From IMG/VR virus record IMGVR_UViG_2579778702_000011: a stretch of DNA of 14,554 nt, one strand, 5' to 3'. Shown here one piece after another: positions 7,041 to 12,790 of the stretch. The stretch's first letter is position 1. Each line of letters begins with the position of its first letter. The position numbers and the translations under genes are program-made. This stretch comes from a virus. Its lineage: Duplodnaviria; Heunggongvirae; Uroviricota; Caudoviricetes. A model generated the notes under the pieces. It was not told the DNA's origin. It did no database searches and worked only from the letters and a program-made list of their open reading frames with translations.

Positions 7041-7697
7041 ATGAAGTCTTTAGGTGAACGTCTCATCAACGCACGGCAAAAAGCTGGGTTAACACAAGAT
7101 GCGTTGGCTAAAAAAGCTGGGATCACCAGAGTTGCAATCAGTAAAGCCGAGCAAGGCCTTACAAAAAGTTTCAACGGTGACACCCTTTTTAAAGTTGCAG
7201 CTGCACTGCGGTGTTCACCGCAGTGGCTTCAGAACGGAGATGAAAAAGATAAGCATTGGGAAAATAATGTTAAGAGCTGCCCACAGAGAGACACAGCACA
7301 CTCTTACCCTGTAATTAACTGGGTTCAGGCAGGATTATTCGCAACTTCTGGTGATGACTACAACATGTATGATCAGGATAATTGGAGGCATTCTGTAAAA
7401 TACGCTGGTGAGAGGGGGTTCTGGCTGGAAGTGCACGGAGACTCAATGACTTCGCCCGTAGGAATAACATTTCCTGAAGGAATGTCGATCCTTGTCAACC
7501 CAGATAAAGAAGTTTTTTCAGGGTGTTACGTCATCGCCAGAAAAAAATCCACCAATGAAGCAACATTCAAAAAATATATTTCTGACATGGGAAAGGCGTT
7601 TCTAAAGCCCCTTAATCCACAATATCCAATCATAGAAATGGACAATGATTGCGAAATAGTAGGTGTTGTGGTTGATGCCAGGTGGGATATTTTCTGA
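7041..7697 (+). CDS. CI/LexA-type prophage repressor (N-terminal HTH-XRE, C-terminal S24 peptidase autocleavage domain)
   Basis: HTH 'LTQDALAKKAGITRVAISKAEQG'. Ala-Gly cleavage site in 'WVQAGLF'. Catalytic Ser in 'GDSM' and Lys in 'ATFKKY'. SD GAGAGGAG before ATG 7041; the track's upstream ATG at 6966 lacks an SD and would overlap the operators. Confidence 0.9.
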   Translation: MKSLGERLINARQKAGLTQDALAKKAGITRVAISKAEQGLTKSFNGDTLFKVAAALRCSPQWLQNGDEKDKHWENNVKSCPQRDTAHSYPVINWVQAGLFATSGDDYNMYDQDNWRHSVKYAGERGFWLEVHGDSMTSPVGITFPEGMSILVNPDKEVFSGCYVIARKKSTNEATFKKYISDMGKAFLKPLNPQYPIIEMDNDCEIVGVVVDARWDIF

Positions 7698-7702
7698 CCA
7701 GA

Positions 7703-7723
7703 CACAAAACACAAAACACAAAA
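7703..7723. repeat. three tandem heptamers CACAAAA just after the repressor stop
   Basis: Read directly; phased A-tracts. Confidence 0.6.
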
Positions 7724-7728
7724 AGAAA

Positions 7729-7805
7729 CCAAAGTATCAAAAATCACTTGCCACACCTTGATACCTTAGTTACCATAAAACAAAGTTCGTAACTGAGGTA
7801 TCATC
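7729..7805. promoter_or_regulatory. OL-like operator/promoter region: the same TATC-core motif in both orientations, with a pL-like promoter candidate
   Basis: aaaGTATCAA (7731..7740), TTGATACC (7758..7765, inverted) and GGTATCA (7798..7804). Promoter candidate TTGCCA (7748..7753)-N17-TACCAT (7771..7776) reading into the gene at 7808. Confidence 0.4.
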
Positions 7806-7807
7806 TC

Positions 7808-8224
7808 ATGATCAATAAAGCTACAACTCTTGACTGTCTCGAAGAACTGAAAAACCTCGGCAGCCTCATTACACTAATAGCAAAAGCAACACCTGATGCT
7901 ACGCTCTCTAGCGATATAGAGTCATGCGCAGGGCTGGCATGGGATATGACAAATAGCATATCCAGAAAGCTATCGTCAGCAATGCTTTTACAGAATAAAA
8001 ATTCTGCAATCAACAACCGTCTTCGCACCCAACGCGAAGCCTGCGGCTTAACAACCGCCGAACTCGCCAGGCTGCTCGATCTCGATGAAGAAATTATCAT
8101 CCAGTGGGAGAGCGGAGAGTATGAACCAACTATCAGTATGCTTATCCCACTGGCAAATATTCTTGGCTGCGATCCGATGTGGCTGTTAACTGGTAAACCA
8201 ACAGGTGGGGATACTTGCGCATGA
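7808..8224 (+). CDS. protein with C-terminal HTH-XRE DNA-binding domain (138 aa); first gene of the pL-like operon
   Basis: HTH 'LTTAELARLLDLDEEIIIQWESGEYEPTISMLIPLANILG'. GAGG 9 nt upstream of ATG 7808. Confidence 0.7.
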   Translation: MINKATTLDCLEELKNLGSLITLIAKATPDATLSSDIESCAGLAWDMTNSISRKLSSAMLLQNKNSAINNRLRTQREACGLTTAELARLLDLDEEIIIQWESGEYEPTISMLIPLANILGCDPMWLLTGKPTGGDTCA

Positions 8225-8463
8225 AAAACTGTGATGCTTACCATATTTGTCTCATTGGTGAATTGCTTGATTTCATACAAAAAAGCACTGCGCGCAATAA
8301 TAAAAATATAACATATGGTGATCTGGTAATAATTTCAGAGGATATAAAGAGCATCGCTCTTAAATTCAAGAGCGACGCGAGTATTGATGACGCTATTTAC
8401 GCTTATCTTGCGAAAATAATTGACGGATCCAAAATCCAGCCTCTGGATGAACCTCGTCAGTGA
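8221..8463 (+). CDS. hypothetical small protein (80 aa), coupled to the HTH gene by ATGA
   Basis: ATG 8221 overlaps the TGA of the upstream gene (the track's 8215 start is a TTG). AT-rich with six ATA codons, so coding status is uncertain. Confidence 0.4.
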   Translation: MKNCDAYHICLIGELLDFIQKSTARNNKNITYGDLVIISEDIKSIALKFKSDASIDDAIYAYLAKIIDGSKIQPLDEPRQ

Positions 8464-8620
8464 AAAACTCCTTTGATGAAGATGAGAACTGCTTCATAAA
8501 CTTTACTTTATCTTCAGGTGAAACTACCTGACGAATTAATGCGGAGATAGCAACTTTGTGCCAAATTAATTCTTTTTTGAGTTCTGAAATCTCTTTTTCG
8601 AGTTGCTCTGCGTTAATCAT
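8393..8620 (-). CDS. hypothetical small coiled-coil protein (75 aa), transcribed against the surrounding plus-strand genes
   Basis: Strong SD GGAGGA 3 nt before ATG 8620. N-terminus EQLEKEISELKKEL. Its 3' end overlaps 8221..8463 convergently by 71 bp. Confidence 0.5.
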   Translation of the reverse strand: MINAEQLEKEISELKKELIWHKVAISALIRQVVSPEDKVKFMKQFSSSSKEFFTDEVHPEAGFWIRQLFSQDKRK

Positions 8621-8731
8621 TTATCCTCCATTGAGAGCTGAATTGAAAATGGGGACCAACACGCGGCTACGTGTGGTCGTGCGCCGGACACGGATAAGCA
8701 TCCGGTAACTGATTATCAATCATTGCGGAAA

Positions 8732-8760
8732 CAGTCTCAATATGAAAACACTTCTGAGAC
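8732..8760. promoter_or_regulatory. inverted repeat AGTCTCA-N15-TGAGACT just upstream of a TATATA -10-like element, in a divergent intergenic region
   Basis: Read directly. Lies between the minus-strand gene ending at 8620 and the plus-strand gene starting at 8800; TATATA is at 8765..8770. Confidence 0.3.
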
Positions 8761-8799
8761 TCGCTATATAGCAGGACATATAAGTCAGCTGAGGAAGCC

Positions 8800-9165
8800 A
8801 TGAAAAAGTTCGAAAACATAACTGTTCTCCATGTTGATGACTTTGATTATACAAACCCGGAACTTCTCCCGGAGGTTGTAAAGGCAATAGATGTTGCCGA
8901 TATAGTGATTAGAGAAAAGAGAATTGTCAAAAACAGGCTCGCATGCACTTCAGGAGCAATGACAGAAACAACCTCACAGCAAGATAATTACGAAGGCATT
9001 TGTCTGGAGCCTGATTCATTTGCGGTAAATGTTTATCATTTATTGCATGCAACACAGGTATTACATATGTCCAGTAATCACGAAACGAAAACACTCGGCA
9101 GCGAAATTCTGAGTTTTGCATGTGAGTATACAAAAGCTGCTGCCGAAAAAGAATTAGCGCAATAA
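8800..9165 (+). CDS. hypothetical protein (121 aa)
   Basis: ORF track; GAGGAAG SD before ATG 8800; no motif recognised. Confidence 0.65.
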   Translation: MKKFENITVLHVDDFDYTNPELLPEVVKAIDVADIVIREKRIVKNRLACTSGAMTETTSQQDNYEGICLEPDSFAVNVYHLLHATQVLHMSSNHETKTLGSEILSFACEYTKAAAEKELAQ

Positions 9166-9243
9166 CAACAAATATGCCCTGAACGTTTATTGCGGTTTTA
9201 TCGCCGGGGATTGTTACAACCTTAATCCACAGGAGGCTTTATT

Positions 9244-9359: not shown

Positions 9360-9590
9360 ATGCATCAGAAAACAGCAGAACACGAACAAACCAGAGTATT
9401 GCTGACCATCAAAAACGGGAAAGTAATATTCATTCGCCATGTTCATGACGATGAACTTGTAGGAACTCTTTCAACATTCCTGTTTATTGCAGAAAGGGCA
9501 GGATATGACGTTATTGCACCAGCAGATGAAGATGAAGATGAAGATGAAGATGAAGATGAAGATGAAGATGAAGATGAAGATGAGGAATAA
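9360..9590 (+). CDS. small protein with C-terminal poly-(Asp-Glu) tail (76 aa; about 55-aa globular part plus (DE)10E)
   Basis: ORF track; the tail is encoded by a perfect (GATGAA)9 tract. Confidence 0.7.
   Translation: MHQKTAEHEQTRVLLTIKNGKVIFIRHVHDDELVGTLSTFLFIAERAGYDVIAPADEDEDEDEDEDEDEDEDEDEE
9525..9578 (+). repeat. hexanucleotide microsatellite (GATGAA)x9, in frame
   Basis: Read directly; followed by GATGAGGAATAA. Confidence 0.95.
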
Positions 9591-11676: not shown

Positions 11677-11940
11677 ATGGCAACTTTGACAAAAAAAGAA
11701 CAAGCATGGTTGAGCGAATTACAGGACGTTCTTGATCGCTGTCCATCACCGAAAAAAATTGGTTTTTACACCATTGGCGATAAAAGCATTTACCTGTATG
11801 ACCTGCGCCGCATGGATGAAATCATGGAGGCTCTTGATAATCGTTCGTCGATGGATTGGTGTGTTGCTGTTCATGATATGAATGCAGGGTTTGATGAAAA
11901 GATTTTGTTCCCCTCATCAGTTGAAAGCACTGCGGGTTAA
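11677..11940 (+). CDS. hypothetical small protein (87 aa)
   Basis: AAGGAG 7 nt before ATG 11677 (the track's 11644 start is a TTG). Confidence 0.6.
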   Translation: MATLTKKEQAWLSELQDVLDRCPSPKKIGFYTIGDKSIYLYDLRRMDEIMEALDNRSSMDWCVAVHDMNAGFDEKILFPSSVESTAG

Positions 11941-11950
11941 GGAGTAACAC

Positions 11951-12463
11951 ATGACCACTATAACCAAAGAGCGACTGCTGACAATCAAGCAGTGGCGCGA
12001 AACATACGGACCGGGTAGCAACGTTGTGCTTCCAGCAGAAGAAGCGGAAGAGCTGGCACGGATTGCGCTGGCATCACTGGCAGCAGAGCCGGTGGCAAAG
12101 ATTATAGCTCATTACCCATTAGGAGTTGACGTAGGCAAACAAAAATTCGTACAGGCCATTAGAGAGCTTCCTGACTTTGGCGGATATCTATTTGCCGCCC
12201 CTCCAGCGCCGATAGTGCCGGAAGAAATGTATTGGCAGGATGCGCCAGTTGAAGGCAGCAGCAAAGCGGCTGCATACGCTACAGGCTGGAACGATTGCCG
12301 CGAAGCCATGCTTCAGTCCGGAAACTTTCGGGAAAATAAAGATTCGTCAACCAATAATTTTCGGAAAATCCCGGAAGCGTCAACCAGCTCTCCGGTAACT
12401 CCGGATGGTTGGATAAGCTGTAGTGAGCGAATGCCGGACGACAGGCAGGAGGTGAATCAATGA
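11951..12463 (+). CDS. hypothetical protein (170 aa), possibly DUF551-like
   Basis: AAGGAG 8 nt before ATG 11951. The motif 'YATGWNDCREAMLQ' resembles a common prophage accessory family; tentative. Confidence 0.65.
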   Translation: MTTITKERLLTIKQWRETYGPGSNVVLPAEEAEELARIALASLAAEPVAKIIAHYPLGVDVGKQKFVQAIRELPDFGGYLFAAPPAPIVPEEMYWQDAPVEGSSKAAAYATGWNDCREAMLQSGNFRENKDSSTNNFRKIPEASTSSPVTPDGWISCSERMPDDRQEVNQ

Positions 12464-12543
12464 GCTGGCCTGATGCAATCGTAACTCTGGGGGTGGTATT
12501 CGCAGCAGCGTTTGTTGTGTTCTCGATTTGTCGATGGGGATAA
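12460..12543 (+). CDS. 27-aa hydrophobic single-helix peptide (MSWPDAIVTLGVVFAAAFVVFSICRWG)
   Basis: Hand translation. AGGAGG 8 nt before an ATG that overlaps the upstream stop (ATGA); the next gene starts 5 nt after its stop. Confidence 0.45.
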   Translation: MSWPDAIVTLGVVFAAAFVVFSICRWG

Positions 12544-12547
12544 CCAC

Positions 12548-12790
12548 ATGTTCGCTTTGATTCAACGCGGTCAGATATACACGGACAGAGCCGGATACCC
12601 CGTGGTGATTACTCGCATCACTGAGCACTCAGTGTTCTTTCGACGGATGGACGGACGATCCGGGCGGGTACGCATTGGTGAGTTAAACTGCCTGTTCGAA
12701 CATATTGACCACCAGGAGTACCGCAAAATTCTCGCGGACACTGAGCAGGAAAAGCACCTGAAAAAATTAGGAGCCATAAAAAGGAAGTAA
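12548..12790 (+). CDS. hypothetical small protein (80 aa)
   Basis: ATG 12548 (the track's 12512 start is upstream and lacks an SD); GGGGA 8 nt upstream. Confidence 0.55.
   Translation: MFALIQRGQIYTDRAGYPVVITRITEHSVFFRRMDGRSGRVRIGELNCLFEHIDHQEYRKILADTEQEKHLKKLGAIKRK

Follow-up and report, generated by a model that had tools for sequence, protein, structure and literature searches.

An L10-family helix-turn-helix gene and its coupled small open reading frame at the head of the early-left operon of a phiP27-like prophage

In phage lambda the antiterminator gene N is the first gene behind the repressor-controlled leftward promoter. In the tailed-phage sequence IMGVR_UViG_2579778702_000011 (14,554 nucleotides (nt); "the window" denotes this whole stretch) the corresponding position, 7808-8463, holds an open reading frame (ORF) of 138 amino acids (aa) followed by a second ORF of 80 aa. 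The likeness of the 138-aa protein (L10, after its phiP27 counterpart) to lambda N is one of position alone; no sequence, composition or motif similarity was found. A much closer relation is seen to the N-terminal domain of the P22 C2 and 434 cI repressors, which has the same five-helix helix-turn-helix (HTH) fold as L10 and shares with it the signatures QWE..E.EP and L.C.P..LL.G. L10 differs from these repressors in that its HTH is C-terminal, not N-terminal, its recognition helix starts with D-E-E, and its predicted dimerisation part is an N-terminal helical hairpin in place of a cleavable S24 domain; moreover the L10 gene is CI-repressed and is not itself a repressor gene. In Bacillus subtilis, SinR combines an XRE-type HTH with helical hooks and is antagonised by SinI, a small protein made of the hook only. 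L10 may be compared with it by analogy, as an XRE HTH fused to a two-helix oligomerisation unit, with hairpin-only small proteins encoded beside L10 genes in related phages. The domain order of L10 is reversed relative to SinR, and neither its own hairpin (type A, below) nor the 80-aa protein has detectable homology to the hairpin family of these phages (hhalign probability 0.3% in both comparisons).

Two further systems resemble the locus in layout. In the phage transcription factor-small ORF (TF-smORF) modules of Silpe et al. (2023, PMC10432266), the factor activates a small ORF that is transcribed divergently from the factor gene and that inactivates cI. The likeness lies in a phage XRE-type factor beside an unannotated small ORF near cI. 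We rejected this assignment, as L10 and the 80-aa ORF are co-directional with an ATGA overlap, are predicted to be translationally coupled and are themselves CI-controlled, so that the control logic differs. In prophage CP-933P, PaaR2 of paaR2-paaA2-parE2 is a CI analogue followed by a bona fide ParE toxin pair (PMC8630535). There too an HTH regulator gene precedes small genes in a lambdoid immunity region, but the L10 gene is located downstream of cI and OL, and the 80-aa partner shows no similarity to toxins.

We read L10 as an early regulator derived from the CI/C2-type repressor DNA-binding fold, with a translationally coupled helical 80-aa partner, and assign this reading a probability of about 0.4. 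As a phage XRE-family regulator with a small partner the pair is of a well-known kind; the domain mosaic and the overlapping-gene layout are unusual. The features on which the reading is based are the following.

7725-7739, 7759-7773 and 7789-7803 (no strand): OL-like operator cluster, three TGATACYWNRGTWAC copies, from the motif count
7748..7776, plus strand: pL-like sigma-70 promoter, TTGCCA, 17 nt, TACCAT, from a consensus scan (9/12 matches)
7808..8224, plus strand: L10-family gene, 138 aa, ATG at 7808, TGA at 8222-8224; HTH_3; phrog_4739
8221..8463, plus strand: 80-aa ORF, ATG at 8221, TGA at 8461-8463, ATGA overlap with L10; phrog_23054 (E 1.3e-56)

The L10 family and its promoter

The original prediction described the 138-aa product as having a C-terminal XRE-type HTH and an N-terminal half of unknown kind, and this was confirmed. 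Pfam HTH_3 matched residues 72-126 (E 2.6e-11, 43.8 bits, cut-off 23), while the N-terminal half gave no family match in Pfam, NCBIfam or PADLOC. A full-length match to phrog_4739 (E 1.1e-84, residues 1-135) and 98% identity to phiP27 L10 place the protein, on sequence grounds, in the phiP27 L10 family (phrog_4739 / phrog_4836). Between the window and phiP27 the ratio of nonsynonymous to synonymous polymorphism (pN/pS) of L10 is 0.009/0.104 (0.09), indicating purifying selection. No Peptidase_S24 match was found in L10 with Pfam; the adjoining cI has one, and L10 is thus not a cleavable repressor of the LexA/CI type. The exact L10 sequence was found on 577 contigs of the protein collection. 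Among 5.8 billion proteins searched there were 156 relatives, and of those with a source name nearly all belong to E. coli and a few to Shigella and Salmonella. A literature search found no paper on the L10 gene; a "bully phage" preprint concerns Cro.

L10 proteins are mosaics. Members begin with a helical hairpin that varies, continue with a P22-C2-like HTH that is nearly invariant, and often include a second HTH. For the N-terminal 60-90 residues at least eight types can be told apart that do not align with one another, each predicted to be helical. In the window L10, residues 1-72 form the type A hairpin, the variable domain linked to immunity, and residues 73-128 the C2-type HTH. In the HTH, 36 residues are at least 90% invariant across 74 family members, with the signature RTQREACGLTTAELARLLDLDEEIIIQWESGEYEPTISMLIPLAN.LGCDP, and its coding DNA is 92-94% identical between otherwise unrelated phages. 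The DNA similarity of mosaic relatives runs from codon 73 to about codon 123, matching the domain borders. The second HTH is present in many members (215-230 aa), and the 138-aa form equals the 218-aa form minus the stretch between two repeated PLAN.LGCDP segments. In 40 loci with four types, the repressor type corresponds 1:1 to the L10 N-domain type; within these loci there is free assortment of HTH number, C-terminal tail and downstream gene. A search for other fusions of the type A N-domain gave only truncated L10 fragments.

The pL-like promoter that had been proposed upstream of the pair is well supported. The window holds six copies of the 15-bp motif TGATACYWNRGTWAC (chance expectation 0.68), confined to the intergenic regions on the two sides of cI; three are at 6979-7017 and the other three make up the OL-like cluster. 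Within this cluster the copies at 7759-7773 and 7789-7803 form an inverted repeat (93% complementary), the -35/-10 pair overlaps the middle copy, and the last one runs into the Shine-Dalgarno sequence of L10. In relatives of three further immunity types, cI ends in a clean hairpin terminator, and next come a TTGACA-type promoter and the L10 homologue. The whole family thus has in common that it stands first behind a leftward promoter under repressor control. Counting all four immunity types, and also in Salmonella, an L10-family gene comes first after cI, terminator and promoter. The slot was correctly recognised as the first position behind the CI-controlled leftward promoter.

Unlike in the other immunity types, no hairpin terminator follows cI in the window; 7698-7725 is instead a C/A-rich, G-poor tract, ACACAAAACACAAAACACAAAAAG. 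Read-through from cI into L10, or Rho-dependent termination at 7698-7725, is possible.

The position of L10 is that of N, the pL-side ORFs scanned include no N homologue, and a variable immunity-linked N-terminus joined to a conserved C-terminus is also a feature of N (an analogy only). These points would fit a non-homologous replacement of lambda N that modifies RNA polymerase for terminator read-through in the early operons. We consider such a function very unlikely. L10 is acidic, predicted to be folded and helical, and without an arginine-rich motif, and it has no N-family match in Pfam, PHROGs or NCBIfam; that the occupant is not an antiterminator of the lambda N type, as originally suspected, agrees with these results, and this candidate was rejected. 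Nor were nut sites found: a boxA-like search gave 8 matches versus 4.5 expected (not significant), and the two early transcripts do not both carry a nut-like boxA/boxB pair. The sole exact boxA-like 9-mer, at 8355-8363, lies inside a hairpin, and none occurs on the pR side downstream of cro. The stretch from pL to 9400 gave no plus-strand intrinsic terminator, so there may be no need for antitermination, and the phage has a separate Q-type antiterminator, QuuD.

The predicted L10 fold and its possible target

The AlphaFold2 (AF2) model of L10, with a predicted local distance difference test score (pLDDT) of 79.8, contains helices at residues 4-27, 31-78, 83-89, 94-102, 109-119 and 123-128. The first two form an antiparallel hairpin, and the second helix continues into the five-helix HTH. 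In a Foldseek search the best match was the P22 c2 repressor DNA-binding domain (3jxb), with a template modelling (TM) score of 0.90, a root-mean-square deviation of 0.8 A and 32% identity. The N-terminal hairpin had no fold match in the PDB or BFVD; the HTH alone matched. Homology and structure searches had been suggested as a check on the pair. For L10 they returned a repressor-type HTH fold, and for the pair no antiterminator, no toxin and no fold match to the 80-aa protein. The earlier description "regulatory or toxin-antitoxin-like" finds support in its first half only. The modelled HTH is structurally close to the DNA-binding domain of the P22 C2 and 434 repressors, and for this reason a regulatory reading of L10 appears reasonable.

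A distant relative in locus L018 has a canonical recognition helix, GVTVQAISLWEN, together with basic helix 1, and over the HTH it shares 41-48% identity with the domains of genuine CI/C2 repressors. From this likeness we conclude that the L10 family descends from a repressor-type DNA-binding domain.

Under the proposed mechanism, CI bound to the three OL-like operators would keep the pL-like promoter shut. Upon induction or infection CI would leave OL, the promoter would fire and L10 would be its first product, the 80-aa protein being co-made by translational coupling through the ATGA overlap and the Shine-Dalgarno-like GGTGGGGA, 10 nt upstream of the 80-aa start. L10 probably dimerises via its N-terminal two-helix hairpin, and the near-invariant HTH would engage a target, either DNA or protein, common to all these phages or to the host. 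The hairpin, tied to the repressor type, would give the immunity-linked part of the function, and the regulator would be insensitive to RecA. The three-helix 80-aa protein would serve as an accessory partner, perhaps in contact with L10, within a conserved four-gene block of L10, the 80-aa ORF, a convergent 75-aa gene and L08.

Several observations weigh against this mechanism. The first turn of the recognition helix reads DNA in repressors of this kind, and in the phmmer alignment the start of this helix in P22 c2, S31-N32-V33, is occupied in L10 by D93-E94-E95. Basic helix 1 of P22 c2 is largely lost in E. coli L10, and by residue count the protein is acidic with a net charge of about -7, the HTH domain alone being about -5. 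Because of the D-E-E start, the lost basic helix and the net acidity, classical DNA binding by the E. coli L10 HTH appears doubtful. No L10 binding site common to the pL regions of different immunity types was seen. The co-segregation of repressor and N-domain could be mere physical linkage, since the two genes are only about 100-150 bp apart. In most L10 family members the 80-aa partner is replaced by other genes, and in its sources the family bears just the name "helix-turn-helix domain-containing protein". Unusual recognition helices are also found in the second HTH of the long forms and in the Salmonella variant.

The main rival explanation takes up the same acidic residues and proposes that the HTH has been re-purposed for protein binding. 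L10 would then be an adaptor or anti-regulator, e.g., an immunity-specific anti-repressor or commitment factor, whose hairpin binds the cognate CI/Cro or hairpin-only small proteins from its own operon and whose acidic HTH binds a conserved protein, e.g., RNA polymerase. The acidic D-E-E at DNA-reading positions, the HTH charge of about -5 and the loss of basic helix 1 relative to both P22 c2 and the L018 protein would fit this proposal. So would the 1:1 match of N-domain and repressor types, and the presence in the same operons of L08 and of hairpin-only 63-66-aa paralogues, which are homologous to type C N-domains, are found fused to an HTH in Salmonella and recall SinR/SinI. On the other hand, P22 c2 itself has equivalents, E39/E42/E44, yet it binds DNA; the recognition-helix residues Q99-W100 are retained in L10; and the type A hairpin resembles neither the hairpin family nor the 80-aa protein to a detectable degree. 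Protein binding by the HTH is possible, in our estimate, though on the whole not probable.

An extended form of this idea, built by analogy, would make L10 proteins immunity-specific commitment factors and not DNA-binding regulators at all. The hairpin would read the cognate CI/Cro or the hairpin-only paralogues (L08 and the 63-66-aa proteins) and the invariant acidic HTH would dock on a conserved host or phage protein. A titration network similar to SinR/SinI would thus sit at the head of the pL operon and replace N-based timing, with the 80-aa protein as one of several interchangeable modulators. We regard this extension as improbable. If true, the commitment-factor network would cover a large group of E. 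coli prophages, long-tailed Shiga toxin (Stx) phages included.

The 80-aa ORF and its convergent neighbour

The ATGA overlap of the two ORFs was as predicted, the coordinates of both being in agreement with it. The 80-aa ORF is without annotation in RefSeq/PGAP and in the phiP27 record. It is intact in 7 alleles. Its codons 1-57, which lie outside the overlap with the convergent gene, carry 11 synonymous and 13 nonsynonymous changes versus a site ratio of about 32:139, and in a two-allele comparison the annotated frame is the only one of the six with an excess of synonymous changes. The part that overlaps the convergent gene looks relaxed (2 synonymous and 10 nonsynonymous changes). When 1.84 billion representatives were searched exhaustively with a profile, a single true relative emerged: P0129 (86 aa, 38% identical over 73 residues), encoded at L018. 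Judging from the intact alleles, the synonymous excess and this relative in conserved synteny, the 80-aa ORF is probably a real gene. AF2 predicts three helices (pLDDT 69, moderate confidence), of which the third (DAIYxYLxKI) is the segment best conserved in P0129. The protein had no family match in Pfam, NCBIfam or PADLOC, and the fold search gave no match (best E-value 7.4).

In L018 the order is cro-like gene, repressor, promoter, L10-like gene, 86-aa gene, convergent 76-aa gene and L08-like gene. The L10-like gene there encodes 139 aa and is 29% identical to phiP27 L10. The 86-aa gene starts 1 nt past its stop codon, with GAGGAGG inside the upstream gene, and the convergent 76-aa gene (63% identical to the 75-aa gene of the window) overlaps the 3' end of the 86-aa gene by 89 nt. 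The counterparts of this convergent gene and its signals in the window are as follows.

8393..8620, minus strand: convergent 75-aa gene (WP_000606214), RefSeq coding sequence; phrog_20080 (E 1.4e-46); pN/pS 0.24
8351..8378, minus strand: terminator of the 75-aa gene, 12-bp hairpin and U-rich tail, from a terminator scan (-19.2 kcal/mol, z -3.6)
8621..8740, minus strand: promoter of the 75-aa gene (TTGAGA, 17 nt, GATAAT; promoter-like site 8740-8712) and structured leader of about 85 nt (-30.5 kcal/mol, z -2.6)

The 3' end of the 75-aa gene overlaps the last 71 nt of the 80-aa ORF (8393-8463). The overlapping protein segments of both genes are conserved in L018. We regard the 75-aa and the 80-aa gene as both real. 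The terminator hairpin falls within codons 44-53 of the 80-aa ORF, which encode the loop region between helix 2 and helix 3. At this codon position a GC hairpin, different from that of the window, is present in L018; the encoded residues show no conservation. The leader core CCGTGTCCGGCGCACGA at 8677-8693 is identical in L018 (2400-2520). Rfam gave no family in 8300-8800 even at E <= 1. The promoter/leader unit may be a portable expression cassette for independently transcribed accessory genes, or a riboregulator.

The same cassette of promoter, leader and Shine-Dalgarno sequence is re-used in locus L014 (735-852), before an unrelated 81-aa gene between rha and cro. The phiP27 record (L002, 7786-7874) has the 75-aa gene broken into two ORFs, annotated as L09, by one additional T within a T-run. 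As every other allele is intact, this T is probably a sequencing error or a strain mutation.

The composition of the unit varies between prophages. The 2.5-kb query 6700-9200 (cI-L10) matches 1047 of 5426 complete E. coli genomes in some part of its length, and the 80-aa/75-aa cassette is present in 54 of the same 5426. Elsewhere the gene after an L10 of the same type encodes a 66-aa protein or an L08-HTH fusion (an HTH protein), or L08 comes next with nothing in between. Since the cassette is rare and the same L10 types have other downstream genes, the L10/80-aa pair, though a conserved expression unit, is not an obligate functional pair. The ATGA junction is kept behind L10 N-domain types A, B, C and E and behind four repressor types, and L018 has the 1-nt spacer. 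No more distant copies of the module were found in two scans of the GTDB species genomes; IMG/VR and metagenomes gave near-identical copies and no distant ones.

The toxin-antitoxin half of the earlier description did not survive. Gene order, a 4-nt overlap and an XRE HTH are typical of type II pairs in which L10 would be the HTH antitoxin and the 80-aa protein the toxin, and L10 has weak matches, confined to the HTH, to antitoxin models of the HipB/Y4mF and MqsA kinds. Both are far below threshold (couple_hipB 25.9 bits, cut-off 71.65; MqsA family 24.9, cut-off 61.8). The 80-aa protein belongs to no toxin or antitoxin family and matches no solved fold, and nothing among the 1.84 billion representatives searched tied it to a toxin family. 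Partners are exchanged freely and co-occurrence is not obligate, and the expression of the pair is under the phage repressor and not under an autoregulated promoter of its own. In relatives a separate ParE-like pair is found further down the same operon. A type II system was accordingly rejected as a candidate, and we judge it highly improbable. A defence system was rejected as well, PADLOC having given generic HTH matches alone (RmrA, CapH).

In another explanation, the functional companion of the 80-aa ORF is the convergent 75-aa gene and not L10; the two would form a small insertable cassette, in which the 80-aa ORF uses the L10 stop codon only for its translation. The two genes always co-occur: PhiR49_2 is without both, with its HTH and L08 kept at 99.8% identity. 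L10 genes of four different types precede the cassette, L018 preserves both the 3' overlap and the embedded hairpin, and the 75-aa gene has its own promoter, leader and terminator. Against an independent cassette, the sole distant relative again has an L10-like gene 1 nt upstream with the Shine-Dalgarno sequence in its 3' end, and the recombination junction always keeps the tight coupling. Such a cassette is conceivable, but we think it rather unlikely.

Prophage context and significance

By similarity the window is assigned to a phiP27-like lambdoid prophage of E. coli, of which it forms a part. Region 6700-9200 is 100% identical to a prophage of O111:H21 strain 15A, inserted beside a DUF72 gene and yecN, and 94.6% identical to the Stx2e phage phiP27. 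The plus strand of the window is the "leftward" direction of the prophage. The gene order is cro-like gene, cI, the 138-aa and 80-aa ORFs and small genes without assigned function, then Ead/Ea22-like, DUF551, DUF4222, xis and int. On the opposite side are replication genes, two Rha-family genes and the gene for QuuD. The neighbouring genes referred to above are listed here.

6720-6929, minus strand: cro-like gene
7041..7697 (RefSeq start), plus strand: cI-type repressor gene (HTH_3 and Peptidase_S24), Pfam Peptidase_S24 E 4.2e-22, HTH_3 E 2.1e-14
8800..9165, plus strand: L08-like gene, 121 aa; phrog_5451 (E 1.7e-83), phrog_4587 and phrog_4836 on residues 57-121

RefSeq names the cI product "LexA family protein", and the longest ORF for this gene begins at 6966. 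L08 has as its C-terminal half a helical hairpin which by alignment is homologous to the N-domain of type C L10 proteins. A family of such two-helix hairpins comprises stand-alone proteins of 63-66 aa, the L08 C-terminal half and the N-domains of L10 types B, C, D and H; it is also found fused to an HTH in a Salmonella L08-like protein. Its members were located at these positions.

Window, 8800-9165: L08
Locus L003, 5223-5420: hairpin-family member
Locus L005, 3203-3579: hairpin-family member
Locus L009, 4699-4899: hairpin-family member
Locus L012, 4720-5355: hairpin-family member

Other features of the region were noted. The strain 15A prophage (L001), otherwise identical, carries an IS903B insert at 11736-12704 in the early-left operon which is absent from the window. 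A 76-aa ORF at 9360-9590 (plus strand; phrog_340, with a weak match to an anti-repressor PHROG) has a C-terminal alternating Asp-Glu run of about 24 acidic residues. Between cro and rha, and opposing the pR operon, is a 97-aa gene (6356-6649, plus strand; phrog_4753), located where a pRE-type transcript toward cI would start. It is followed by a weak terminator-like hairpin (6657-6679) and is found in the same place in L009 and L011. Rfam matches to C4 antisense RNA (82 bits) and to the Hfq-binding RNA isrK (62 bits) are at 5175-5262 and 5287-5363 on the minus strand, within the 5' part of ORF 4566-5420 (Phage_ASH and Phage_pRha domains). Their placement suggests a P1/Gifsy-style RNA control of an antirepressor-like gene.

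The L10 family heads the early-left operon of phiP27-type prophages, and the cI-L10 query matches about one fifth of complete E. coli genomes. The locus also adds a probably real 80-aa gene without RefSeq annotation, in conserved antisense overlap with a separately transcribed gene. The L10 mosaic, an immunity-locked N-domain joined to an invariant HTH, offers a clean experimental handle. Prophages of the phiP27 type include Stx1a-, Stx2a-, Stx2d- and Stx2e-converting phages; should L10 influence the choice between lysogenic and lytic growth, it would be relevant to the induction of Shiga-toxin phages.

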